Positions 2,574 to 46,723 of a DNA stretch of 64,000 nucleotides are shown here, piece after piece. The notes beneath the pieces were generated by a model that ran no database searches, was not told where the DNA came from, and worked only from the letters and a program-made list of their open reading frames with translations. A program made the translations under genes and the position numbers. Each line of letters starts with the position of its first letter. Positions within the stretch are counted from its first letter, which is position 1. This stretch comes from Candidatus Uhrbacteria bacterium (GTDB lineage Bacteria > Patescibacteriota > Patescibacteriia > UBA9934 > UBA10169): assembly GCA_016187485.1 (NCBI GenBank), contig JACPJO010000005.1, positions 7,499 to 71,498 of the forward strand, written 5' to 3'.

Positions 2574-2906
2574 TCAGGAAGACTCAGATAAATACTTACG
2601 GGCTTTAACGAATACCTTACGTTCAAGAGCCGTCAACGGGTCAATGCGCAACTCCCGAGCTATCAAAAAGAGAATATTGAAAACATCGGCGAGCTCGTCT
2701 TCAAGATGCTGCTCTGGAGAGCAAGTTTCTTCCCCCAGCTTTTTCATGCGGGACTTACCTTGACTTGAAAGCAGAGCCTCGGCTAATTCTCCCATCTCCT
2801 CCATCAGCTTGAGCAAAAGATACTCGCGATCCATCACGATCCCGTGTTTTTTCTTATAGCGTTCCGCGTTGGCCTCAATGAGACGCTGGACTTCTTGAAA
2901 TTCCAT
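2574..2906 (-). CDS. MazG-like nucleoside triphosphate pyrophosphohydrolase (small single-domain type)
   Basis: EEMGELAEALL and ELADVFNILFLIARELRIDP motifs are typical of MazG / NTP-PPase all-alpha proteins. Confidence 0.7.
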   Translation of the reverse strand: MEFQEVQRLIEANAERYKKKHGIVMDREYLLLKLMEEMGELAEALLSSQGKSRMKKLGEETCSPEQHLEDELADVFNILFLIARELRIDPLTALERKVFVKARKYLSESS

Positions 2907-3048
2907 AAGTTATTTCTTGACCATATCTTACTTGACCCATTTGCGCTCCATGTTATCATACCCGCGCCCTTCACAGGCATACCTTCCGGGGTAGTCTCCG
3001 ACCCTACGGGTCGTAGACCCGGAGGGCTCAGCGGCATGAGTCACTCGT

Positions 3049-3306
3049 ATGTTCTTTGTCTATCTGATACAAAGTGAAAGCGACCAAAGGTATTACATTG
3101 GGCAGACGCAAGATCTCACTGCCCGACTAGAGGAGCATAATAACGGAGAAGTCCCCTCGACATGTAATAGAGTCCCCTTTCGCTTGATCGGATACGAGAC
3201 CTACAAGACACGATCAAAAGCGCGCTGGCGTGAATACTCGTTGAAAAAGAGTGCTCACAGACGGAAGCAATTCATCGAACATGTAAGTAAAAATATTCCG
3301 GGGTAG
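3049..3306 (+). CDS. Stand-alone GIY-YIG nuclease domain protein (UPF0213/YhbQ-like, 85 aa)
   Basis: VYLIQSESDQRYYIGQTQDLTARLEEHN matches the GIY-YIG core (GIY...YIG...R...E..N). Its stop codon (TAG 3304-3306) lies inside the first 10 nt of the tRNA-Asn gene. Confidence 0.7.
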   Translation: MFFVYLIQSESDQRYYIGQTQDLTARLEEHNNGEVPSTCNRVPFRLIGYETYKTRSKARWREYSLKKSAHRRKQFIEHVSKNIPG

Positions 3307-3637
3307 CTCAGCGGCAGAGCAGTGGACTGTGACCAGGATCAAGCGATCCAAATAGCAGCTTCCTGCGGAGACGCAGGAATGAAAAGAGGGTGAACTGCTG
3401 GAAGCCGTCGCGTAAGACCAGCTAAGCTGGCCGAGCACGGTAATCAGCAGCCAAGCCCGCCGCATAGCTGAGGCAATGCAGGCGGGAAGGTTCAGAGACT
3501 ATCCGCAAGGAGTACTCCGACGATGTCGGAGGAAGCGCCCTCCGTCCTTCGGGACGATGATATAGTCCACCCCTTAAGGAAACTTAAGGATACGTGTAAT
3601 CCATTGGTCGTGGGTTCGATCCCCACCCCCGGAGCCA
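3297..3637 (+). tRNA. tRNA-Asn(GUU) interrupted by a group I intron in the anticodon loop (exon 1 3297-3330, exon 2 3597-3637 including encoded CCA)
   Basis: Joining the exons gives UCCGGGGUAGCUCAGCGGCAGAGCAGUGGACUGUUAAUCCAUUGGUCGUGGGUUCGAUCCCCACCCCCGGAGCCA. This is a canonical cloverleaf with a 7-bp acceptor stem, D-arm GCUC/GAGC, anticodon stem GUGGA/UCCAU, loop CUGUUAA and T-arm GUGGG-UUCGAUC-CCCAC. The anticodon arm GGACUGUUAAUCC is near-identical to E. coli tRNA-Asn. Confidence 0.8.
3331..3596 (+). ncRNA. Group I self-splicing intron (266 nt, no internal ORF) inserted between anticodon positions 35 and 36 of tRNA-Asn
   Basis: Conserved group I core elements are present. P-like CUGCUGG (about 3396-3402) pairs with Q AAUCAGCAGCC (3442-3452). 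R is GGUUCAGAGACUA (3489-3501) and S is GAUGAUAUAGUCCAC (3555-3569), giving P7 AGACUA/UAGUCC. P2 is the hairpin CUUCCUGCG-GAGA-CGCAGGAA, and P9 is the hairpin CCUUAAG-GAAA-CUUAAGG. The 5' exon ends in U (3330) and the intron ends in G (3596). A candidate P1 pairs exon CUGU with intron GCAG (3355-3358). Confidence 0.75.
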
Positions 3638-3890
3638 CTAAATCCACTCAGTGCAAACTGGGTGGTTTTAGTTTGTTCGTGCCTTGCAAATAGTGCGGAA
3701 AAGCCATCTTTTGGTACACACTGAAACTCCCCGTCAGCAAAAATGAGTTCGGAAAACGCCTGCGTGACGATTTCTCGTTTTTCACTATTGGAGTGGACCC
3801 TGTACACTCCACTATTCTTCTGTTTCGATATTTAGCGTTTTGAAAACTGCTTCTATTTCTGATTCAGAATGTTGTGGTGTGTTTGGCATA

Positions 3891-4073
3891 CTATTTCGTC
3901 TCAATCGAATCCAAGAACTTATCAAACTCCTCCTTCGGAATCCGATAACCCTTGCCGAGTCTGTGTGCCTTGAGCTTTCCGGCCTCGATGTAACGGTAAA
4001 TGGTCATTTCGCTGACTCGTAGCTTCTCTGCCAGCTCAGAGACAAGATAGAAGTCTGGTATTTGGGTTGCCAT
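3891..4073 (-). CDS. Excisionase/MerR-like helix-turn-helix DNA-binding protein (60 aa)
   Basis: LVSELAEKLRVSEMTIYRYIEAGKLKAHRLGKGYRIPKEEF matches the Xis/helix-turn-helix_17 family pattern. It lies next to a tRNA and an R-M system. Confidence 0.6.
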   Translation of the reverse strand: MATQIPDFYLVSELAEKLRVSEMTIYRYIEAGKLKAHRLGKGYRIPKEEFDKFLDSIETK

Positions 4074-4076
4074 ACG

Positions 4077-5996
4077 TTAGAACAGCACGAGTGACTCCCC
4101 AAAAATCTGTGTGAGCTCCCATTTGCGAGTCGTATCAACGGCACGGTGTAGACCGATGAAACGAATATCTTTTTGACCCTCAAGAGCCTTGATGGTTGAT
4201 TCTTTCAAATCTGCATCAAGACAAACGAGTGCGGAACGGTCTCCGTCCGTAACTTTCCAAACCGCATTGTCTGCAAACTGGTCGAGCTTCTCTTTGTTCA
4301 TCGTGAGAGTGAAGCCCTGCTTGATGAGCATTTCGTATTGCAAGTCTGTCTCTTTGTTTTTTGGGTCAAAGAGTAGTTGCTGTTTTGCTCGCGCAAGATG
4401 TTCTTGAAATGCTTCAACGTTCTCTTCATCCGATTTTTCTGGGTCCGGTTGGTATGTGTTTTCAGGGAAGATGCTTGTTGTGAGCTTGAAGACCTTGAAT
4501 CCAGTATCAACGTCAGGCTTCTCAGAATGAATCCGTTCACCCGCGCGTTTTACACGCTCGATAGTGATATCGGATATTTTTTTATACCCAGCTTTGAATG
4601 CCTCGCTTTTTTCGTCGGTTGCTTCTGGAATCTGAACCATTACGGATTTTCTATTTCCACCGTCTTCTTGGTTGAGATCCATTACTGCATGTCCTGTAGT
4701 TCCAGAACCGGCAAAAAAATCAACGATAATGTCCTCATTTTTTGTGATGGTTTTCAGTATGACTTTGATGAGCTCAAGTGATTTTGGCGATGGGAACAGT
4801 TTGGCTTTAGTCTCAAATAAATCATTGAATACTGCTTGTCCTTTTTCAGTAAAATACTTCTTATCGTTCAAGATGCTTTTGAGCATTTTCTCAGCCCCGC
4901 TGGCATATGATTTGCGGTATATCTTCCATTGGCCATTTACTTGCTTTGCTAACAAAAACTCCGTTTCATTCTCGCTTTTTTCTTTTCCCCAAGCCCAACA
5001 CCCGTTGAAGCCGTCGTCCCAATCTGGATACACCGCAATGCCTTCCGGTGTTTTTCTCAAACTAATCTCTCCCGACTTATCGTCAACGAAAAATGGATAA
5101 TGAAGGTTCGGACGATTATGCTTACCAAACTCTCTATGTGTGTTACGGAGTTCGAGAAGACGATATTTTCCACCGTCGTCTTCCTCAGAGTATTCCGCTG
5201 CTATTTGCTCAGCATCTTTCTCAATCGCGAAATAGCCCTTAGGGAGCTGTGTTTTCGAATAACACAATACGTACTCATGATTTGTAGCAAAATATTTATC
5301 TTGCGAACGACCTTTTGGATTGCAGAGAACAGTTAGCTGTGCGACAAAGTTTTCTTCACCAAAAATCTCATCCATTAGTTTTCGAAGGTGGTGTATTTCG
5401 TTATCGTCAATAGAAATAAACACGGCTCCTTCATCTTTCAACATCATCTGCGCCAACAAGAGACGTGGCATCATCATATTGAGCCAGTTGGTGTGGTAGC
5501 GGCCGGCGCTCTCGGTGTTTGTGTCCATCTTTACACCGTCACGGAAGAGGCCGTTTTTCTCCCAGTATGCCTGCTTGCCCTCGGAGTAATCATCTGAATA
5601 GACAGAGTCATGACCCGTGTTGTAGGGAGGGTCAATGTAGATACACTTCACTTTGTTGTAGTACGCCTTCGAAAGAAGTTTTAGAACCTCCAGATTCTCC
5701 CCCTCAATAATCACGTTTTGTGTTTTATCAAAATCAACGCTGCGCTCCACGTCGGGCGCAAGGCGAGCTTTGCTCGGGGTGAAGGCATGCTTCTTAGCGT
5801 GCATCTTGCCCGGCCAGCGGAACTCAAACTTTTCGCCAAGGGAAACGTCAAAGTTGTGTGCGAGAGCATGTACCTCCTCTACATTCAGCTTTCCCTCATC
5901 GGTAAACAAATCAGGATAGAGCCGCTTTATTGCCTCAAGGCGCTCGAGGCGGTGGTCAGGGCTCTGTAATGCTGGGTTTTGTGGTTCGTGCGTCAT
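4077..5996 (-). CDS. mod: Type III restriction-modification methyltransferase (Mod), beta-class N6-adenine/N4-cytosine MTase
   Basis: Motif IV is DPPY (IYIDPPYNTG), located N-terminal to motif I (IIVDFFAGSGTTGHAV). This beta-class order is typical of Mod proteins. The protein is 639 aa and the gene is immediately downstream of res. Confidence 0.85.
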   Translation of the reverse strand: MTHEPQNPALQSPDHRLERLEAIKRLYPDLFTDEGKLNVEEVHALAHNFDVSLGEKFEFRWPGKMHAKKHAFTPSKARLAPDVERSVDFDKTQNVIIEGENLEVLKLLSKAYYNKVKCIYIDPPYNTGHDSVYSDDYSEGKQAYWEKNGLFRDGVKMDTNTESAGRYHTNWLNMMMPRLLLAQMMLKDEGAVFISIDDNEIHHLRKLMDEIFGEENFVAQLTVLCNPKGRSQDKYFATNHEYVLCYSKTQLPKGYFAIEKDAEQIAAEYSEEDDGGKYRLLELRNTHREFGKHNRPNLHYPFFVDDKSGEISLRKTPEGIAVYPDWDDGFNGCWAWGKEKSENETEFLLAKQVNGQWKIYRKSYASGAEKMLKSILNDKKYFTEKGQAVFNDLFETKAKLFPSPKSLELIKVILKTITKNEDIIVDFFAGSGTTGHAVMDLNQEDGGNRKSVMVQIPEATDEKSEAFKAGYKKISDITIERVKRAGERIHSEKPDVDTGFKVFKLTTSIFPENTYQPDPEKSDEENVEAFQEHLARAKQQLLFDPKNKETDLQYEMLIKQGFTLTMNKEKLDQFADNAVWKVTDGDRSALVCLDADLKESTIKALEGQKDIRFIGLHRAVDTTRKWELTQIFGESLVLF

Positions 5997-6006
5997 ATAG
6001 GCGTAT

Positions 6007-8703
6007 TTAGGCGGTCACAAGGCGTTCTGCTTTTCGTTCTGGGCGTTTGCCTTCATCCGCAATCGGTGGGAAGGCATCGGTCATGTAGTATTCCTCCAGG
6101 CCAATGGCTTTGAAATGAGCTATGGCACATCTTATTTTGGCTCGTTCCTCATCGTCGAGAACCGGTTGATTTTCTTGGAAGCCCTTAGTCTCAACGACGA
6201 AGTGGTAGGTGGTAGCCTCCCCCTCATCAATCGACCGCTTTTCTATGACCAGCGCCCAATCGGGGTTGTAGGGTCCAACGGGGGTTGGGATTTTGTACCA
6301 GTCTGGGAGTTTGATAAAACACCGGACCCGATTCTCTCCATCAATGTCTTGCGCGAAGCGTTTCTCGATGGAGCTGTTGTAGACAACGTGGTCGTACACG
6401 CCTCCGCTCACCTTGATTGCGTCCTGGTACGTCTCGAATGCCTCTTTGAACTCATCCTTGCCGTAACGGTCGCTCTTTGGTTCGTAGCGCACACAACGCA
6501 CCATGGCGTGCTTGATGATACTCTTCATGGCTACGGATGCTTTGGAGAGAAACGCGACCGGATTTTGAGCTACTTTCTTTTGGTCGCGTACACCGTGAAG
6601 AATCTCTTCAATCGCTCCCATGGAGAGCCATGTCTCTTCTGCGAGCTCAGCGACGAGGTCGACTTTCGGAGCAGAGGCAACAGCGATATCTTTTATCTCT
6701 TCGCCTTTGTAGTCGTCGCTAAACGTGATGCCGTTTTGAGTATTTTGTTGCATGGAAGTAATGCGCGTGAGCGTGGCCTGCACGCGCGGGGGAGGAACAG
6801 AAAGACCATTGAGGGTTTTTACACAATCGTTCACGATGGTTTGTTCATCGAAATGAACGGTGTATTTGGTTTTGCGAGAAATAACCTCCCAGAGCCGGTC
6901 GAAATCTGAACTCTCAAAGACGGCTTTGTTGCGCTTCACTTTAGTGAGCGCTCGACGGGCATCTGTTAGTACCATCTCTTGCGCCTTATCTCCGTATTCA
7001 TCTGCGAGCTCATTTTGATATTGCGAAACAAACTCGGCGTAGCTTTGGTTGGGAATAACGGTCAGCAAGTTAACCGGAATACCACTCTCCATTTTCTCCG
7101 GGTCGCGTACACGGCTGCCGGTCTGGTCTACGCAAATACGAAGTCCGCGTCCAATCTCTTGACGCTTCTGAATCACGCTCTCTGTTTCGTTGAGGGTGCA
7201 TATGTTGAAGACGTTCGGGTTATCCCAACCAACTCCGAGTGCGGAGTGGGAGAACAAAAACTCGAGTGGTTCATCAACCGAAAGGAGTCTCTCTTTGTCG
7301 CGCATGATGAGGTCGAAAACGTCATCATTCTTTTGCATCGCGGCAACGCTGTCGGTCCATTCGCCCTTGCCGGTCTTGGCGAAGTATCCACCGTGCACAG
7401 CGTTCGTGTCACTCGGAAGTTTACCGTATTTTTTCTTATATTCCTCTGAGTAGCATTCGTTGAACAAACGACGAATCAAACCCTCCTCGTCAACGTAGTT
7501 AGCAACGCGGTCAATGAAAAAGAGTGACAACACTTTGACGCCAATCTCTGCCAACTGTTCCTTCTTTTTGAAATGTTGAGCAATCGTGAGCCGGATTTGT
7601 TCGCGGAAGATTGCCTCCTTGTCTTGCCCGTGACCGGCACCTTGCGCGAGCTCGGTTCCATTGGTGAATCGAATGCGGGCTACCTCATCACCCATATCCT
7701 TCCAGACGCGGTCGACAACCCAACCTTCGTAGGCGGGATTTTTGGTCTTCTTGCCGAGGTCATCATCCTTCGTCACTTTGATGGTCTTTTGTTTGAAACC
7801 TCCCCCAGCCAAACGAACCATAACGCCGATTTTTGCATGTGGCTGTTTACCAGCAGTAAAATCAACATCATGCACAACGATGTTTGTGGTGCTCTCTTTG
7901 TTTTCTTCATGGACAGACAGGACTTCTACCTGCTTCACGAGCCGCTTGTTGTACGCATCAAACGGCGTCAGCTGGTGGACGAGGTTCTTCACCACTTTGT
8001 GCGTGGCTGAGTAGCGCAACTTGAGGAGCGGATTGAGTCCCTCAAGACGCTTCACCATGTTGGGGGAGTCCATGCCCTCCTGTGGTTCGTCCATGATAAT
8101 AACCGGCTGAACCTGGCGAATGAGTTCAATAAGTTTTTCGCCGCCATTGCTATCGCGTTCCTGGTTGATGATACGGTCATCCGTATTGAACGCCTGCACG
8201 TTCATGACCATGATTTGCAAATCGGCAGACTGTGCGTAACCGCGAATCATTGTTGGCTTTTTGCTGTCGTAGGCAAAGGCACGGTGGTTGACGCCGTAGA
8301 TAGTTTTGAAATGGTCAGCGGCAATCTCAAGGGTCTTGAGTACACCCTCTTTCACCGCGATTGAGGGTACAAGAATAATAAACTTCGAAAGGCCGTAGGA
8401 TTTGTTGAGTTCAAAAATCGTGCGCAGGTAGACATATGTTTTACCTGTACCTGTTTCCATCTCAACGGAAAAATCGAGCTCATCAATCGGTCGGGCATCG
8501 AGAATGTTGTTGAGTTTTGCTACACGGTCGCGATTCTCTCGCACAGCTTCTGGTGCGATGCGAAGGTCATTGGCACAAACGCCGGCAAAGAGCCGGTCTT
8601 CCGCGCGAACGTAGGGCGCTCCAACAAACAGTTGAACCACCGAAGCGATAGCATCAAGCTGGTACTGGAGGTTGGCTTCAAAGTGGAGCTTTAGCATATT
8701 CAT
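6007..8703 (-). CDS. res: Type III restriction enzyme Res subunit (SF2 helicase plus endonuclease)
   Basis: Helicase motif I is METGTGKTYV and motif II is DEAD-like IIMDEPQ. The protein is 898 aa and co-oriented with, and adjacent to, mod. Confidence 0.85.
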   Translation of the reverse strand: MNMLKLHFEANLQYQLDAIASVVQLFVGAPYVRAEDRLFAGVCANDLRIAPEAVRENRDRVAKLNNILDARPIDELDFSVEMETGTGKTYVYLRTIFELNKSYGLSKFIILVPSIAVKEGVLKTLEIAADHFKTIYGVNHRAFAYDSKKPTMIRGYAQSADLQIMVMNVQAFNTDDRIINQERDSNGGEKLIELIRQVQPVIIMDEPQEGMDSPNMVKRLEGLNPLLKLRYSATHKVVKNLVHQLTPFDAYNKRLVKQVEVLSVHEENKESTTNIVVHDVDFTAGKQPHAKIGVMVRLAGGGFKQKTIKVTKDDDLGKKTKNPAYEGWVVDRVWKDMGDEVARIRFTNGTELAQGAGHGQDKEAIFREQIRLTIAQHFKKKEQLAEIGVKVLSLFFIDRVANYVDEEGLIRRLFNECYSEEYKKKYGKLPSDTNAVHGGYFAKTGKGEWTDSVAAMQKNDDVFDLIMRDKERLLSVDEPLEFLFSHSALGVGWDNPNVFNICTLNETESVIQKRQEIGRGLRICVDQTGSRVRDPEKMESGIPVNLLTVIPNQSYAEFVSQYQNELADEYGDKAQEMVLTDARRALTKVKRNKAVFESSDFDRLWEVISRKTKYTVHFDEQTIVNDCVKTLNGLSVPPPRVQATLTRITSMQQNTQNGITFSDDYKGEEIKDIAVASAPKVDLVAELAEETWLSMGAIEEILHGVRDQKKVAQNPVAFLSKASVAMKSIIKHAMVRCVRYEPKSDRYGKDEFKEAFETYQDAIKVSGGVYDHVVYNSSIEKRFAQDIDGENRVRCFIKLPDWYKIPTPVGPYNPDWALVIEKRSIDEGEATTYHFVVETKGFQENQPVLDDEERAKIRCAIAHFKAIGLEEYYMTDAFPPIADEGKRPERKAERLVTA

Positions 8704-33633: not shown

Positions 33634-34515
33634 ATGTCATCTCCTATCTTTACACGCAATGCGTTTTTGCATTTGCTTGCGTTCATCAGTTTTTATTGGG
33701 CTGTCGTGGGGCTTATCACGCTCTACTTCCAAATTGTCAACGCGCTCTTTCCGGACCCGCTTATCTATCAAGACATGACATTTGGCGCCATGCGGTGGGG
33801 GATTTCTTCGGTGGTTATTGCGTTCCCTGTTTTTGTCGTGACGATGCGGTTCATTCGGAGCCAGGGCATTATTCGACCGCATTTCCCCATATACTTCACG
33901 CTTTTTGTGACGGGTGTCACGGCCATGATTGATTTAGCTACGCTTGTATATCACCTCACCGGTGGGGATCTCACAACGCGGTTTATTTTGAAAGCACTGG
34001 CTGTGCTCGTGGTTGCCGGTTCCGTGTTTGCTTACGAATGGTGGCACTTGAAACATGACGCGCTTCACCCGTCCAAACGCGCACGCTTCATGTTTATCCT
34101 CGTCTATATTTTACTCGCGCTTTCTGTGGTTGACGCATTTTGGGTGATTGGTTTACCAAACGTGCGGCGGTCACAGTCGCTTGATGAACGGCGCGTAAAC
34201 GATCTTCGCTCTTTGCAATGGGAGGTGCTTTCTCTCTACCAACGGGATGGCGAACTTCCTGAAACGCTTGATATGCTTGTGCGCGATCCGGGCACCAGTG
34301 CTGCCTATGAGTATCGGCCACTCGACCTTGCGTCATTTGAGCTTTGTGCAACTTTTGATCGCGCTTCTACAGGAAAAGAATCGCCGCCTTATATGGGCCG
34401 ACCCATTGCGGAAACATCAGACATTTTTACCCATGGGGCCGGATACACGTGCTTTGCGCGCACGGTTGAAGCCGATCCGGCTGTAGCCAATGAAAAAATC
34501 TATCGGCTGAGGTAG
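33634..34515 (+). CDS. Membrane protein with 5-6 TM helices and a soluble C-terminal domain (hypothetical)
   Basis: Hydrophobic segments through about residue 170, then a polar C-terminus. Start chosen after the mutY stop; the track ORF begins at 33577. Confidence 0.4.
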   Translation: MSSPIFTRNAFLHLLAFISFYWAVVGLITLYFQIVNALFPDPLIYQDMTFGAMRWGISSVVIAFPVFVVTMRFIRSQGIIRPHFPIYFTLFVTGVTAMIDLATLVYHLTGGDLTTRFILKALAVLVVAGSVFAYEWWHLKHDALHPSKRARFMFILVYILLALSVVDAFWVIGLPNVRRSQSLDERRVNDLRSLQWEVLSLYQRDGELPETLDMLVRDPGTSAAYEYRPLDLASFELCATFDRASTGKESPPYMGRPIAETSDIFTHGAGYTCFARTVEADPAVANEKIYRLR

Positions 34516-34536
34516 GGGGAGAATAAGAGAGGTATA

Positions 34537-34567
34537 AAAGTCGAAAGCGACCCCGTGGGGTCGCTAG
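34537..34567 (-). terminator. Rho-independent terminator of the 519-aa GC-rich gene; copy 1 of a 31-nt element repeated in inverted orientation at 46746-46776
   Basis: On the minus strand the transcript reads AGCGACCCC-ACG-GGGGTCGCT followed by UUCGACUUUUAU. It is identical over 31 nt to the hairpin after the 45233..46723 gene. Confidence 0.6.
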
Positions 34568-34614
34568 GTCCTCCTTCGCCTTGATGGGCTACGGAGGATG
34601 GAGAGAAGGAACGT

Positions 34615-36174
34615 TCAGTCGTTGGGATCCGTGAGCTTGCGCACCCGCATAGCGTGGGTGTCGAACGTGCAGGGCGCGTCCGCGAGCGGGTAGAAGCGCC
34701 AGCAGTCGCGCGCGACGGGCGGCGTATCGCGCGGGGGGAAGCCCGGCACGAGCACGTCGGTCCGCGCGGCGAGGAGCTGGCGGTCGATCTGGTCCTGGGG
34801 CCACTCGAGTTCGTAGCGGAGCGTCTGTCCGCTCTGCACGACCGTGGCCGTGTAGAGCTCTCGGTGCTTCGTGCGGCTGAAGCCATCGTAGGTGGGCTTC
34901 ACGAACTGCCAGCCGCACTCGATGACGCGCGACTGCAGGGCCTCGTAGAACCATGCCTGGCGCACGATGCTCTCGCGCGGCACGGTCTTGGTGCCCTCGT
35001 CTTCGCGCCCCTTCTGTGGCCTCACGGACTTGACGTAGCCGGTGCCCCCTTCCTCCATCTCGGCGGCCAGGATGTGGCGGTACAGGTAGGGGGCGTTCTC
35101 CGGCGTGAGGCGCCGGAGGAGGTTGCCGAGCAGCTGCTCGCACTCCCGTCCCCACGTGTTCCTGTGCATGTCGAGCAGCAGGTGGGTGGCGATCGTGTAG
35201 GACGAGTCGCACGCGGGCAGCGCGCGCAGGATGTCGTAGCGCACGCCGATCGGGAGGGCGCGGAGGCTCTCCGTGTCGACGTGCTTCGCCGTCATGTTCG
35301 GCTGCGACAGCGCACTCGTCGTCGCCTCGATCATGGGCAGGGCCCAGTCGAAGCCGACCCGGGCGAGCGCCATGAGCTCCTTGATGCCCTTGTTGTAGAA
35401 CGCGTTGTGGGGCGGAGGTGGCGGGTTGCCGGCCTGGAGGTGCGCCGCGAATGCCGTAGCGAGCCACCACCGGTGAACGAACGCCAGCGGAGCCCGCCGT
35501 GCGCACTCCGTGACCATCTTGCGGAAGTCGTTCACGTCCTCGAAGCAGGGCCAGAGGGAGGCGGCCCATCCATCGGAGGAGTCGAGGAACTTCCCGGCGA
35601 ACGAGCCATCCGTGTTCGTCGTGATGAGCTCCCACACGATCTCGCGCATCATCTGCTTGCCGTCCCGGTGGGTCAGGATCACGTCCGTGAGCCACGTCGG
35701 GTCGTGGGAGCGGCGGAGGATGTGCGTCCGCGCCGTCTCCACGCGCTCCTCGATCGGGAGCCAGGCGAAGAGGATCGGCAGCTCCTGCACGATCTCCGTC
35801 ATCTGGGTCCACGACGTGTCCGTCGTGAGAACCCGTGCGAGTGCCGCACGGTCTGCCTCGGGCAGGATCGTTCCGAGGTGCTCCAGACTCTGCAGGACCC
35901 AGCAGAGCCCGTGGGCCTGCGTGATGTCCTCGGGGAGGTTGCACTCGCGGTCGCGCTCGATCGCGGTCAGGATGTCCGCCAGCTTGAGCGTCCCCGTCTC
36001 GTCGCGAACCGTGAGGTCGGGGTGCAGCATGAAGCGCGCCTGGCGCGTCTTCTGTGCCTTCTTCTCCTTGATGGCCTTGTCGCGGGCCTGCTGGTACTCG
36101 AGGAAGCTGAACCCGCGATTTTCGAGATCCTTCCGGATTTCCTGCATCTCCTCACTGTTGAGCTCGATGTCCAT
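34615..36174 (-). CDS. Large hypothetical protein (519 aa) encoded in a GC-rich (foreign-looking) block
   Basis: Long ORF with balanced, protein-like composition. The overlapping long ORFs in other frames are Arg/Pro/Ala-rich high-GC artefacts. I recognise no catalytic motif. Confidence 0.55.
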   Translation of the reverse strand: MDIELNSEEMQEIRKDLENRGFSFLEYQQARDKAIKEKKAQKTRQARFMLHPDLTVRDETGTLKLADILTAIERDRECNLPEDITQAHGLCWVLQSLEHLGTILPEADRAALARVLTTDTSWTQMTEIVQELPILFAWLPIEERVETARTHILRRSHDPTWLTDVILTHRDGKQMMREIVWELITTNTDGSFAGKFLDSSDGWAASLWPCFEDVNDFRKMVTECARRAPLAFVHRWWLATAFAAHLQAGNPPPPPHNAFYNKGIKELMALARVGFDWALPMIEATTSALSQPNMTAKHVDTESLRALPIGVRYDILRALPACDSSYTIATHLLLDMHRNTWGRECEQLLGNLLRRLTPENAPYLYRHILAAEMEEGGTGYVKSVRPQKGREDEGTKTVPRESIVRQAWFYEALQSRVIECGWQFVKPTYDGFSRTKHRELYTATVVQSGQTLRYELEWPQDQIDRQLLAARTDVLVPGFPPRDTPPVARDCWRFYPLADAPCTFDTHAMRVRKLTDPND

Positions 36175-43984: not shown

Positions 43985-44030
43985 AATTCGAAAGCCAGGC
44001 ACGAGGCCTGGCTAGGAAGAAAAGAACGAA

Positions 44031-45104
44031 CTAGAGCTTGTGGCCGAGGCGGCGCATGGTGGCGTGGATGTCGCTCACCACGAGCACGGCGTCGGCACGC
44101 GTGAGGTGCCACACGCGCTCGCCGTCCCAGTGGCGAAGTGGTCGCCGGATTGCCGAATCCTCGTTGAGTAGATCGGTGTAGAGTGCGCGCAGTCGGGGCT
44201 CGGACTTCTCTCCCTCGAATCGCTTGATGCGCAGTTTGAGGCGCCGAGCGAGCTCCGCCGACATCTCCTCGCGACTCTTCCGTGCCGCGACGAGCCGGAG
44301 GCTCGTATACACGCCGTCGTCTCGTCCCTGCTCCCACGCTGCGATGAGCTCCGGTTCCGGACTCACGCGGATGTAGTTGGCGGGGAGCGTGCGCGGCGGC
44401 GGTTGGGCGGCCTCGGTGCGCGGTGTGGCCTCTGCCGAAGGCGGTTCTGCCGCCTGCCGCTGCGCCTGCTCAATGTCCGCCGCCGTGACACCGCTTCCCG
44501 CCTGCACGACTTGTGCGCGCAGGCGCTCTTCGCGAATGCGCGCCCGGGAGCTTTCCGCCGCCGCCGTCTCTTCCGCCGTCTTCACGAGCTCCATCTTCTG
44601 CGTTCTAGCGTAGGCGGTGAAGCCATCGCGCACAGAGGAGTTCCAGAAGGCGCTGTCGTCGGGCCAGTCGGGCGCATCGTTGGGGGACGTGTAGCCGAGT
44701 TGTCGCGCCATCGCGATCACCTCGTCGTACTGATCGTCTCCCTCGGGCGCGATCTGCATCGGCTCGTCGGGGTTGCGGGAGGAACTGTGTCGGTACTTGT
44801 CGAGCGCCTTGAGTCCGTAGTAGATCGCCTCGCGCAGACTCTCGTCCACGCCGACCTTTTCGAGCAAGGTCTTCCATTGCTCGAGCGCGCCAGGCTTCTC
44901 CACGCTCTTCGTGAAGGTCCCCCGAGGGAGGAACCTCACGGCGCCCTCGACGAACGGGGCGAATTCGTAGCTGCCGTCCTTCTCTCGGTCTACGTAGTTG
45001 TTCCCCCCCTCCATCTGACGTGCGTCGGCGAAGGGGAGGGCGACGAGGTCCAGGTACTCCTGAGGATTCAGTTCAGAAAGGCTGATAGCCATGGGGTACT
45101 CCAC
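44031..45104 (-). CDS. Hypothetical protein (357 aa) in a GC-rich foreign block
   Basis: Long ORF with normal composition, a central Ala/Glu/Gln/Pro-rich linker and a charged C-terminal domain. Divergent from the 45233 gene. Confidence 0.5.
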   Translation of the reverse strand: MEYPMAISLSELNPQEYLDLVALPFADARQMEGGNNYVDREKDGSYEFAPFVEGAVRFLPRGTFTKSVEKPGALEQWKTLLEKVGVDESLREAIYYGLKALDKYRHSSSRNPDEPMQIAPEGDDQYDEVIAMARQLGYTSPNDAPDWPDDSAFWNSSVRDGFTAYARTQKMELVKTAEETAAAESSRARIREERLRAQVVQAGSGVTAADIEQAQRQAAEPPSAEATPRTEAAQPPPRTLPANYIRVSPEPELIAAWEQGRDDGVYTSLRLVAARKSREEMSAELARRLKLRIKRFEGEKSEPRLRALYTDLLNEDSAIRRPLRHWDGERVWHLTRADAVLVVSDIHATMRRLGHKL

Positions 45105-45158
45105 TTCGTATAGGTTAGGAAAAGGCCGAAACGCCTCAACTTAGCAAAAAAACCTGTC

Positions 45159-45178
45159 GCTGTCAATGCGTTGACAGC
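45159..45178. promoter_or_regulatory. Palindromic operator candidate overlapping a TTGACA -35 box between divergent GC-rich genes
   Basis: GCTGTCAA-TGCG-TTGACAGC is a perfect 8-bp inverted repeat. A CTGTCG/CTGTCA direct repeat lies immediately upstream. Confidence 0.45.
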
Positions 45179-45232
45179 AGCAGACTTTTCTGCTAGGTTA
45201 AGCCCTTAGTTTGCGGCGATCCTGCCGCGAGC

Positions 45233-46723
45233 TTGGGCCGTCCAAAGACGGACGGCAAGTTCCTTGCAAGATGTTGGGCAATCCCGCCCTGTGTACGGCG
45301 CCGTGTGGCGCAGAAAGTGAGAGAGGCCATGCCTCGTCCCCGTAAGGCTCTGCCTGCAGAGCTCCGGCCCGCCATTCCGGGCAAACCGGTCAATCTTCTT
45401 CCCGACAAGTACCGCCGGAACCCCCTCCAGTTCGCCCGCGAGGAGATCGACATCGCGCGCAACAAGGGGGAAGTGCCCGACAACGATGCCGCTTTCCAGA
45501 CCCAGATCATCGAGGAGGACGAACGGCGGTGGCGGTCGCGCGAGCTGCCCGCCATCGCGGGGTACGTGAACCGGATGTACGCGCGCGGAACGTTCGTGGA
45601 CCCCGACGACTTCATGATCGTCTGGGGGCTCTGGAACCAGCACACCCACAGCTTCCGGCTCTCGCACGGCGACCCGGCGGTCACGAACGTTCTCACTGCC
45701 CACAACCAGGGCATGGCCCGCCCCATCACCGATGCGTTCCGCCCCATCCACGAGAAGGCGGTTCCGGTCCCGTTGGCGCTCCTCGCCTTCGAGAAGCGGG
45801 AGATGGGCGAGGACGTCCCGGCGGGCGTCGAGACGTCGGTGTACGTCTACGTCTGCATGCCGGCCAATCTCGAGGCATCGGTGAAAGACGGAAACTTCAC
45901 CGACGACGTGAGCGTGGGCGACACCCAGGTCTACACCACGGATCGCCAGGCAGTGCACCGCCGGAAGGAGGGCAATTTCCTCTTCCGGCCGAACAGCGTG
46001 TCCAAGCACCCCCGCAAGCGCTTCGTCGCCTTCCATCCCGTCACGAAGAAGCCGATCTACCTCGCTGTGATCCCGCAGCGCTTCCTGCGCCGTGGCAAAG
46101 AGGGCGAGGAAGGCTTCCAGCCCGGGCAGCCCTGCCCGGTGGACATGGACGAGTTCGCGGACGGCTACCAGGCCCAGGTCATGGACGAAGGTGCGGTGGC
46201 CACGGACGAGCCGGCGGAAGAGGAAGTCAAGAAGATCCTCGACCGCATCGCGCACGGAGGTGCCGGCGGGCGCAAGGCCAGCAGGCAGGGCGAGTTCGAC
46301 TTCGACGGCCGCGTCTGGAACGCGCTCTCGATCCTCGGCATCAAGGAGGGTGAAGCGCCGACGGCAGAGAGCATCGGGAAGGCGCGCAGGCGCTACAGTC
46401 CGAGGCTCTTCGATGCTCGAAGCGCCATGGGCCTCCACAGCGCCCTCGTCCTGCTCGGCATGCCCGAGAGCGATCGCACCGCGTACATGAAGGACAAGCA
46501 CTTCGAGATCTTCAAAGCCGCGGTCGGTGTGGCCGAGGGGATGCTGCCGAAGGCCGAGCCGGTGGAGGAGACGGAAGGCGACAAGCCCGCCGACTCGCCA
46601 CCCGCAACAAGCGAAGCGTCCAGCGCGACGACCTCGCCCGCCGACACGACGGACGACCCCGCCATGTCCCAGCCCGCCGCGACCCGCAAGGCCCCGCGCG
46701 TGGAACCCGGCACCGACGACTGA
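45233..46723 (+). CDS. Large hypothetical protein (up to 496 aa) in a GC-rich foreign block, with acidic Ser/Thr/Pro-rich C-terminal tail
   Basis: Long ORF whose overlapping antisense ORFs show high-GC artefact composition. The true start is possibly the Met at about 45329 (MPRPRKAL). Stop TGA at 46721-46723. Confidence 0.5.
   Translation: MGRPKTDGKFLARCWAIPPCVRRRVAQKVREAMPRPRKALPAELRPAIPGKPVNLLPDKYRRNPLQFAREEIDIARNKGEVPDNDAAFQTQIIEEDERRWRSRELPAIAGYVNRMYARGTFVDPDDFMIVWGLWNQHTHSFRLSHGDPAVTNVLTAHNQGMARPITDAFRPIHEKAVPVPLALLAFEKREMGEDVPAGVETSVYVYVCMPANLEASVKDGNFTDDVSVGDTQVYTTDRQAVHRRKEGNFLFRPNSVSKHPRKRFVAFHPVTKKPIYLAVIPQRFLRRGKEGEEGFQPGQPCPVDMDEFADGYQAQVMDEGAVATDEPAEEEVKKILDRIAHGGAGGRKASRQGEFDFDGRVWNALSILGIKEGEAPTAESIGKARRRYSPRLFDARSAMGLHSALVLLGMPESDRTAYMKDKHFEIFKAAVGVAEGMLPKAEPVEETEGDKPADSPPATSEASSATTSPADTTDDPAMSQPAATRKAPRVEPGTDD

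Follow-up and report, generated by a model that had tools for sequence, protein, structure and literature searches.

Introduction

In fungal mitochondria, endonuclease reading frames known as mORFs, found in atp6 of Allomyces and in atp6, atp9, cox2, and nad3 of Glomus, carry a replacement for the C-terminus of the gene in which they lie and leave the native one behind (PMC3630166). In T-even phages, the Seg enzymes, including SegB in the tRNA gene cluster of T4, favor inheritance of their own genes and of flanking markers through break repair (PMC2330249). In the ultra-small bacteria of the candidate phyla radiation (CPR, or Patescibacteria), GIY-YIG open reading frames (ORFs) are sparse in the non-intron insertions of rRNA genes and have been described as lying 'outside the context of homing' (PMC11270868). 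Here we describe a locus in a 64,000-nt stretch of DNA (the window) from a 303-kb contig of Candidatus Uhrbacteria bacterium, a CPR member, in which an 85-aa GIY-YIG nuclease ORF runs into the 5' end of a tRNA-Asn gene, downstream of a dead copy of that same 5' end that is split by a 31-nt hairpin.

Our analysis gives good support to the view that we are dealing with an insertional cassette whose host gene stays alive because the cassette supplies a new gene end, and that the cassette is unrelated to the group I intron in the same tRNA gene. The design recurs in tRNA and protein genes of CPR and other bacteria and has apparently not been described so far; a full-text literature search returned no description of this architecture, a result that speaks for the literature searched only and is no proof of absence. 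An endonuclease ORF with a carried gene end is already known, and there is a real chance that the pair of hairpin and nuclease could be a new kind of element.

Results

A nuclease ORF is bracketed by two copies of the tRNA-Asn 5' end

The locus came to attention through an original prediction, made from the sequence alone, that the first 22 nt of the tRNA recur upstream in two halves separated by a 31-nt insertion. A repeat search of the window confirmed the recurrence and the split, and corrected the length. The 11-mer TTCCGGGGTAG occurs at 2984-2994 and again at 3296-3306, and the 11-mer GCTCAGCGGCA occurs at 3026-3036 and again at 3306-3316, both at 100% identity; G3306 is common to the two halves, so that the repeated tRNA stretch is 21 nt (3296-3316) and not 22. 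Alignment of 2984-3036 with 3296-3317 is exact over 11 nt in each half and ends at 3317, where a G faces the T at 3037. The upstream copy, on the forward strand like all parts of the locus, is a dead 5' stub of tRNA-Asn, with the leader base at -1 and tRNA nt 1-10 in its first half (2984-2994) and tRNA nt 10-20 in its second (3026-3036). The second half decays in the direction of the ORF start.

The two halves of the stub are parted by the hairpin insert at 2995-3025, and the two copies bracket the 85-aa GIY-YIG ORF (3049-3306), whose stop codon lies within the real tRNA, just as predicted. The ORF has no stop codon of its own: its last three sense codons and its TAG (3304-3306) are made of tRNA nt -1 to 10, the TAG itself being U8-A9-G10 of the live tRNA-Asn. 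Because a complete, regenerated tRNA follows the ORF, the insertion leaves the tRNA undestroyed.

Two collinear exact 11-mers within 80 nt have a chance expectation of about 2e-9 in the roughly 450 nt of upstream DNA. An assembly artefact is excluded by six independent Logan assemblies of the same organism that run through the locus with 100% identity. These results bear on a group of other explanations, namely an attachment-site (att) duplication left by an integrase-type island, an assembly artefact, or a chance repeat. tRNA genes are classic integration sites, and a possible island, with an HTH_17 ORF, a type III restriction-modification pair, and low GC, lies on the 3' side of this one. 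What is duplicated, however, is the 5' end of the tRNA and not its 3' end, of which the window holds no second copy; the repeats bracket just 258 nt of coding DNA, in which the 85-aa nuclease is the sole ORF and there is no integrase; and the expectation of about 2e-9, the agreement of the six assemblies, and the recurrence of the layout in dozens of genomes leave this group of explanations with hardly any chance at all. We rejected the att duplication on these grounds.

The same architecture recurs in many genomes and host genes

A protein-guided scan with one genome per species yielded 57 usable loci with a homologous ORF. Exact repeats of the host gene flank the ORF on both sides over at least 10 nt at 36 of the 57 loci and over at least 13 nt at 25; by chance, about 0.03 and 0.0004 per locus would be expected. 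A tRNA gene abuts the ORF at 31 loci, directly 3' at 20 of them and directly 5' at 11, and the ORF stop falls within the tRNA at 9 of the 20 loci with a 3' tRNA. Many of these ORFs lack a stop codon of their own: it is formed by tRNA nt 8-10 in the window and at 10 or more loci, and elsewhere a TAA or TAG in the D-loop is also used. The tRNAs that ARAGORN places on the same strand, a few bases from the ORF end, are Asn, Arg-CCG, Ile-TAT, Lys, Gln, Asp, and Pro, and a second copy of their 5' part, exact over 13-75 nt, directly precedes the ORF.

The general layout is thus a dead stub of the host gene with a GC-rich hairpin, followed by a nuclease ORF that runs into the host gene, followed by the intact, regenerated host gene. 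The 11 loci with a 5' tRNA have the mirrored layout of intact tRNA, ORF, and 3' remnant, mostly in Calditrichota and Ignavibacteriota and in some CPR. Where the host is a protein gene, an upstream copy of the N-terminal coding region is truncated by the hairpin, and the ORF is either fused in frame with the regenerated gene start or overlaps it by ATGA or a few codons. Among database representatives there are also tandem two-domain proteins, and proteins of 337-612 aa whose N-terminal part is the GIY domain; cluster representatives of the small GIY-YIG protein number 5,062 at E <= 1e-3.

At every locus the repeat consists of the 5' part of the host gene found there, which disposes of the possibility, raised with the original prediction, that it is a generic promoter element shared by many tRNA genes. 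The ORFs form clusters that follow the host gene and are not random (Asn, Arg-CCG, Gln, Asp, Ile, Leu, Glu, Pro, and two protein hosts). With the same layout at many tRNA genes and some protein genes, and with repeats specific to each host, the idea of a mobile GIY-YIG cassette that inserted at the tRNA 5' end and regenerated it holds up well.

The ORF encodes a minimal Slx1-type nuclease under purifying selection

An NCBI 'GIY-YIG nuclease family protein' from the same organism has a sequence 100% identical to that of the ORF product, which belongs to the GIY-YIG superfamily by its match to Pfam PF01541 (E = 1.9e-13; 51 bits against a cut-off of 22.6). The catalytic domain fills the entire 85-aa protein and no DNA-binding or accessory domain is present, as anticipated; the C-terminal module of the I-TevI and Seg homing endonucleases is thus missing. 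Y16, I17, G18, R26, H30, and E62 are invariant among 21 homologues, and Y5 is nearly so; the catalytic residues Y5, Y16, R26, H30, and E62 are thus all conserved. A phmmer search found only two sequence relatives with solved structures, both UPF0213 proteins (1zg2, E = 9e-7; 1ywl, 1e-4). The AF2 model (pLDDT 93) has the topology E-E-H-H-E-H-H, and Foldseek ranked 1zg2 first, with query TM-scores (TMq) of 0.62-0.70 for Slx1 chains, 0.53 for UvrC, and 0.44 for I-TevI. By sequence and modeled fold, the protein falls in the minimal Slx1/UPF0213 (YhbQ-type) subfamily, not with UvrC or I-TevI. Flaps, junctions, and stem-loops are the substrates of Slx1, in keeping with the physical association of the ORF with a hairpin.

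With a dN/dS of 0.04-0.15 the ORF is under strong purifying selection; together with the invariant catalytic residues and the predicted Slx1-like fold, this indicates that the nuclease is functional. No second copy of the ORF exists in the window. None of the ORFs that we read (the window and L005-L169) has a recognizable Shine-Dalgarno site within 5-10 nt of the start codon, and their translation may therefore start weakly or in an unconventional way. IMG/VR viral contigs contained neither the ORF nor the hairpin, and we rejected a viral origin on that basis.

The hairpin is a dispersed element in its own right

The insertion that splits the stub (TCTCCGACCCTACGGGTCGTAGACCCGGAGG, 2995-3025) had been described as GC-rich with palindromic cores. 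It has arms GACCC / GGGTC / GACCC between CTCC and GGAG ends and a predicted hairpin fold with z = -2.45; what went unnoticed is that it is a conserved and widely dispersed element. It is unique in the window, with no second copy there, and Rfam at permissive thresholds returned no family for the hairpin or the stub. The identical 31-mer stands at the same tRNA position in L005, an intron-less tRNA-Asn locus whose ORF product is 60% identical, and also occurs in L001 and, among the matches listed, in about 20 metagenome contigs. Across the loci compared, the dead upstream copy nearly always contains a GC-rich palindromic insert. Variants in other hosts share the design CCTCC-GRCYC-NNN-GRGYC-NN(N)-GRCYC-GGAGG and sit in the D-loop (Ile, Lys, and other Asn lineages) or in the anticodon loop (Arg-CCG), while Gln, Asp, Glu, and Pro loci have other small hairpins (YCCCG...CGGGR), some of them in place of the anticodon arm of the stub.

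We searched metagenomes with a degenerate pattern and obtained at least 129 hairpin copies on at least 120 contigs. Among the 129 listed, an ORF lies 13-114 nt downstream in the same orientation for about 18 hairpins and is nearby in some other layout for about 10; for about 90 (roughly 70%) there is no GIY-YIG ORF on the contig. It follows that the hairpin is an independent, dispersed element. Three exactly repeated sequence types dominate among the matches listed. The ends are fixed (G-Y|CTCC...GGAG-R|G) with a flank preference of YRG|G, and hairpins often lie in tRNA-like loops, in the loops of other palindromes, nested in themselves, and in tandem. Short, palindromic, with fixed ends and many dispersed copies that include tandem and nested ones, the hairpin has the features of repeats of the repetitive extragenic palindrome (REP) or miniature inverted-repeat transposable element (MITE) kind. 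We detected no target-site duplication at the hairpin beyond a possible single G.

The three 5-mer arms covary together, with about 95% Watson-Crick pairs, and covariation also links the base 5' of the hairpin to position 22 (106 of 109 cases). These patterns are evidence for two foldings that exclude each other; the GGAGG tail is unpaired in just one of them. The distance from the hairpin to the ORF start is 9-25 nt, while the position of the hairpin in the tRNA spans nt 10 to nt 35. Hairpin type follows ORF clade only weakly (55.2% identity within types versus 52.6% between types; permutation p about 0.03).

Three simple accounts of the hairpin were tried and rejected. It does not provide the Shine-Dalgarno site of the ORF, because its GGAGG lies 9-25 nt from the ATG, too far away. 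It is not in general a tiny tRNA intron: its removal restores a full-length tRNA at one locus (L133, the same as L142) of about 120. And it is not a local inverted copy of the tRNA left as a repair scar, as the same 31-mer occurs in unrelated hosts.

We also made several separate observations on hairpins. In L133 (910-1010), the only full-length tRNA-Asn on the contig, which follows a stub and a GIY-YIG ORF, has a 31-nt hairpin between its T-stem and T-loop, and taking out 31-32 nt gives a perfect tRNA; either this is a fresh pseudogene or the hairpin is removed or tolerated. In L012, L017, L019, L027, L028, and L089, one or two hairpin units stand directly 5' of the Shine-Dalgarno site GGAGGTGA of a secreted-protein gene, which in five of the six is downstream of a GIY-YIG ORF in conserved synteny. 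Short tandem hairpin arrays with a 41-nt period and a conserved AATTAG after each unit occur in L072, L073, L119, and L130. Finally, three independent Logan assemblies of the same organism as the window (L179, L180, and L186) stop exactly at the 3' edge of the hairpin, window position 3026, and it appears that the palindrome breaks short-read assemblies.

These properties invite a reading centered on the hairpin, which we think unlikely. The 31-nt hairpin would itself be the mobile entity, REP/MITE-like, and the Slx1-like protein its structure-specific nuclease; hairpin plus ORF would be autonomous and solo hairpins non-autonomous. Insertion would occur at YRG|G in the loops of structured DNA such as tRNA genes, and the survivors would be partial duplications that restore the gene. 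Such a reading accommodates the dispersal of the hairpin, its defined ends and flank preference, its nested and tandem copies and those inside other palindromes, and its strong enrichment beside GIY-YIG ORFs (the approximately 18 close cases and 10 other layouts among the 129 listed). It is also consistent with the modeled fold of a nuclease for branched DNA or stem-loops, with ORF-less partial duplications that carry a hairpin (L123 and the L149 remnants), and with the coupling of hairpin to ORF start at 9-25 nt despite the variable position in the tRNA. However, strand transfer requires more than a nuclease, the ORF is not flanked by a second hairpin end, the correlation of hairpin type with ORF clade is weak, and cassettes outside the CPR have unrelated hairpins. 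Nor does it explain why the regenerated end starts exactly at the first base of the gene.

Comparisons between loci suggest present or past mobility

L001 and L084, which have different hosts, share 82% identity over one stretch only, which runs from the hairpin's first base through the ORF core and defines a unit of about 285 bp. Tandem arrays of ORF plus remnant are present in L044, L045, and L051. In L058 (939-1100) and L149 (reverse strand, about 1460-1740), the ORF is followed by a live tRNA-Arg(CCG) and then by one or two displaced 3' remnants; these remnants are different tRNA-Arg alleles, each with a hairpin in the anticodon loop, so that the carried end at these two loci appears foreign to the native remnant, and the arrangement looks like serial allele replacement at one locus. 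The near-identical strains L126 and L151 differ at 9 positions in 3803 nt, and 5 of these fall within the 74-nt tRNA-Ile that adjoins the ORF. They include a compensatory change in the acceptor stem, and the 5' part of the L126 tRNA equals the stub; this comparison suggests a foreign carried end. In the window, the stub and the live tRNA are identical over 21 nt, with no allele difference.

Given these comparisons, we lean, if only slightly, toward the reading that what lies in the window is a single copy of a widespread, roughly 0.3-kb cassette, made of hairpin and nuclease and lodged in the 5' part of tRNA-Asn, that spreads in a homing-like manner by recombination. Nuclease-stimulated homologous recombination would have brought the cassette in and would carry it between genomes with the same target gene. 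Where an unoccupied allele has a break or a branched intermediate, an occupied allele would serve as the template for repair, the stub and the live gene providing the two homology arms, and hairpin, ORF, and new 5' end would thereby be copied into the target. The break itself, or the resolution of the joint molecule, may come from Slx1-type cleavage of branched or hairpin DNA. The hairpin would be a REP-like palindrome distinct from the ORF but moving together with it, and its presence would identify the displaced copy; it might serve as nuclease substrate, as a block on the old copy, or as an RNA leader, and its active form might be RNA or single-stranded or cruciform DNA. The intron would be at most a hitch-hiker in the conversion tract. 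Going by the biology of RNase P, 5' processing of the tRNA would remove the stop codon of the ORF, which would tie nuclease expression to unprocessed transcripts.

Several results weigh against spread by homing. We saw no empty allele: the 16 population contigs of the window's species, which contain the neighboring MazG-like protein, match the window at 100% identity throughout, the search recovered no syntenic relatives, and two 56%-identical orthologues lie in different neighborhoods. L007 and L011 have kept both ORF and locus over a dS of about 0.85 under strong purifying selection, which fits a useful, retained gene as well as or better than an active homing parasite. Sequence-specific cleavage of a target is doubtful because the protein lacks a DNA-binding domain and has the predicted fold of a structure-selective nuclease, not that of I-TevI, and any putative target site is still present, intact, in the regenerated tRNA. 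The homology blocks of the stub in the window, 11 + 11 nt, are too short alone for a RecA homology arm. The hairpin does not keep one orientation relative to the ORF, its type is only weakly related to ORF clade, and since some 70% of the hairpins listed have no ORF, part of the association could reflect independent insertion of hairpins into neutral stubs. Cleavage by the protein and mobility of the cassette are inferences.

The locus as a putative transcription unit

A promoter-like site (TTGACC, 16 nt, TG-TATCAT; 2932-2959), with 10 of 12 matches in a consensus scan and an extended -10, lies just 5' of the upstream tRNA fragment and is the sole sigma-70-like match on the forward strand in 2700-3900. 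Judging by its position and sequence, it is probably the native tRNA promoter, which would now drive the stub, the nuclease ORF, and the tRNA. A terminator-like hairpin with a T-run (3644-3675) marks the other end. From the positions of promoter and terminator, the locus can therefore be read as one unit of promoter, stub with hairpin, nuclease ORF, tRNA with intron, and terminator.

This arrangement could also belong to a domesticated operon, an idea to which we assign a low probability. After an old insertion, the nuclease would have become a host gene co-transcribed with the tRNA, with a role in RNA or tRNA metabolism or in DNA repair, and the stub with its hairpin would act as a structured 5' leader through which processing, stability, or translation is controlled. 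Besides the single promoter-to-terminator unit, the dN/dS of 0.04 and the retention of the locus over a dS of 0.85 speak for it, as do the two alternative pairings supported by covariation, with the Shine-Dalgarno-like GGAGG tail free in just one, and the hairpins that elsewhere stand directly 5' of Shine-Dalgarno sites. In addition, prokaryotic Slx1-like GIY-YIG genes are recurrently found beside or fused to COG4123 and TrmH methyltransferase genes (PMC1564403), an association that leaves a link to RNA possible. Yet domestication does not explain the repeated independent insertions in unrelated protein genes, nor the tandem arrays, the foreign tRNA remnants, and the hairpin-plus-ORF unit common to different hosts. 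It is also at odds with the variable orientation of the hairpin relative to the ORF, and with the distance of 9-25 nt from GGAGG to ATG, too far for a Shine-Dalgarno site.

The group I intron and the 3' neighborhood

ARAGORN called no tRNA in the raw 64-kb window because of the intron. In-silico removal of 3331-3596 yields a canonical tRNA-Asn with anticodon GTT, which ARAGORN recognizes on the joined exons. The tRNA begins at 3297, with 3296 as a single leader base; exon 1 (nt 1-35) covers 3297-3330, and exon 2 (nt 36-73 plus the discriminator base), with the encoded CCA at 3635-3637, covers 3597-3637 according to the joined-exon fold. The intron between them (3331-3596), at anticodon-loop position 35/36, is 266 nt long and contains no ORF. 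It matches Rfam RF00028 at 3338-3589 (74.8 bits against a gathering score of 50), and its boundaries, taken from the tRNA fold, have a U before the 5' splice site and a G at the intron end. It begins 25 nt past the stop codon of the nuclease ORF and ends less than 300 nt from that stop.

Group I introns at position 35/36 of tRNA-Asn and tRNA-Asp have been described and experimentally validated in Patescibacteria, where they are widespread; GIY-YIG is nowhere mentioned in that work (PMC13011429). Because its site and its tRNA match, the intron in the window is, by sequence, of this already known type, and its self-splicing is predicted.

The original prediction had tentatively linked the nuclease to this intron through collaborative homing, in which the free-standing GIY-YIG enzyme would cut intron-less tRNA-Asn alleles and so mobilize the adjacent ORF-less intron. 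The ORF does adjoin an ORF-less intron in the window, and a conversion tract that starts in the tRNA could co-convert it. However, seven loci (L005, L080, L110, L121, L137, L161, and L166) have the cassette in a tRNA-Asn(GTT) gene without an intron, so the cassette is independent of the group I intron. It is likewise found at other tRNAs and in protein genes; the nearest relatives of the window ORF are in intron-less tRNA-Asn and protein genes, not with introns; and the introns are widespread in Patescibacteria with no mention of the ORF (PMC13011429). Collaborative homing has thus largely been refuted already, and we regard it as very unlikely.

Further downstream, on the 3' side of the tRNA-Asn (window 3891-8703), are an HTH_17 (excisionase/AlpA-like) ORF and a type III restriction-modification pair (N6_N4 methylase and res-like helicase), in a region where GC is 0.41-0.46 (4-12 kb); this may be a genomic island on the 3' side of the tRNA. 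Public gene calls include a 56-aa ORF over tRNA exon 2 and the terminator (3523-3693), which is almost certainly spurious. Elsewhere in the window, 34001-36000 and 44001-46000 have a GC of 0.63-0.64 against a background of about 0.53, and no Rfam family reaches its gathering threshold there.

Discussion

If the favored reading of a self-healing, recombination-spread cassette is correct, hundreds to thousands of small genes annotated as 'GIY-YIG nuclease family' would be its cargo and not orphan repair genes, and the cassette would target tRNA and other genes without inactivating them. In CPR genomes, it would account for fragments of pseudo-tRNAs, for tRNAs that gene calling misses, and for breaks in assemblies. 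The uncharacterized bacterial Slx1/YhbQ family would gain concrete substrate candidates in the hairpin and the tRNA gene, a new REP-like element would be tied to a nuclease, and the mitochondrial strategy of an mORF with a carried gene end would reach bacteria. The overlap of ORF and tRNA, with the stop at U8-A9-G10, would be an unusual coupling of protein expression to tRNA 5' processing.

A bolder proposal, which we consider doubtful, is that the GIY-YIG ORF and the three-arm hairpin make up an unrecognized class of nuclease-only mobile element, guided by DNA structure and homology and with no transposase or integrase. Such an element would invade loops of structured and often essential genes (tRNA, rRNA, and the 5' ends of protein genes) and persist by rebuilding the gene end, with solo hairpins as its non-autonomous progeny. 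It would be widespread in the CPR, with analogous pairs in Calditrichota, Ignavibacteriota, and Bacteroidales.

Comparison with known systems

By sequence and fold, and as a stand-alone domain, the protein resembles Slx1 and the UPF0213 proteins (YhbQ, BH0048, and EF2693); the literature searched does not link bacterial members of this group to gene-end duplication, insertion in tRNA genes, or a hairpin. The 31-nt element, in turn, resembles REP elements with their REP-associated tyrosine transposases (RAYT), as well as mitochondrial double-hairpin elements and GC clusters, in being short, GC-rich, imperfectly palindromic, and dispersed, with tandem and nested copies, identical copies in many genomes, and enrichment beside one nuclease gene. 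Its putative partner, in contrast, is a GIY-YIG protein and not an HUH Y1 protein, and REP and double-hairpin elements are not known to have its three-arm design (X, X', X) with two alternative pairings or its insertion in tRNA-like DNA loops.

The Seg family (PMC2330249) is similar in that its GIY-YIG genes lie outside introns and beside tRNA genes. Seg proteins, however, have DNA-binding domains and an I-TevI-type fold, whereas the window protein is predicted to be Slx1/UPF0213-like (TM 0.62-0.70 for Slx1 versus 0.44 for I-TevI). Moreover, Seg genes make no stub of a host gene and carry no regenerated gene end, and they are phage genes, whereas neither cassette ORF nor hairpin was found in viral contigs.

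The insertions in CPR rRNA genes come from the same phylum, involve the same protein superfamily, and are likewise non-intron insertions in structural RNA genes; unlike for the cassette, no hairpin, stub, or regenerated gene end is described for them (PMC11270868). By analogy, they may be the same phenomenon.

In design, the cassette parallels the fungal mORFs. In both, an endonuclease ORF lies inside a host gene and carries a replacement end, the gene stays intact, and a displaced native pseudo-copy is left; in both, the ORF is often in phase with or overlaps the host gene, and the carried end may at some loci be a foreign allele (here L058 and L149). Unlike the mORFs, the cassette sits in bacterial chromosomes, with tRNA genes as its main hosts, and mostly rebuilds the 5' end, a mirror image that gives way to the 3' end in some loci outside the CPR. 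Its nuclease is an 85-aa catalytic core with no DNA-binding domain, a conserved hairpin marks its displaced copy, and its stop codon is borrowed from the tRNA.

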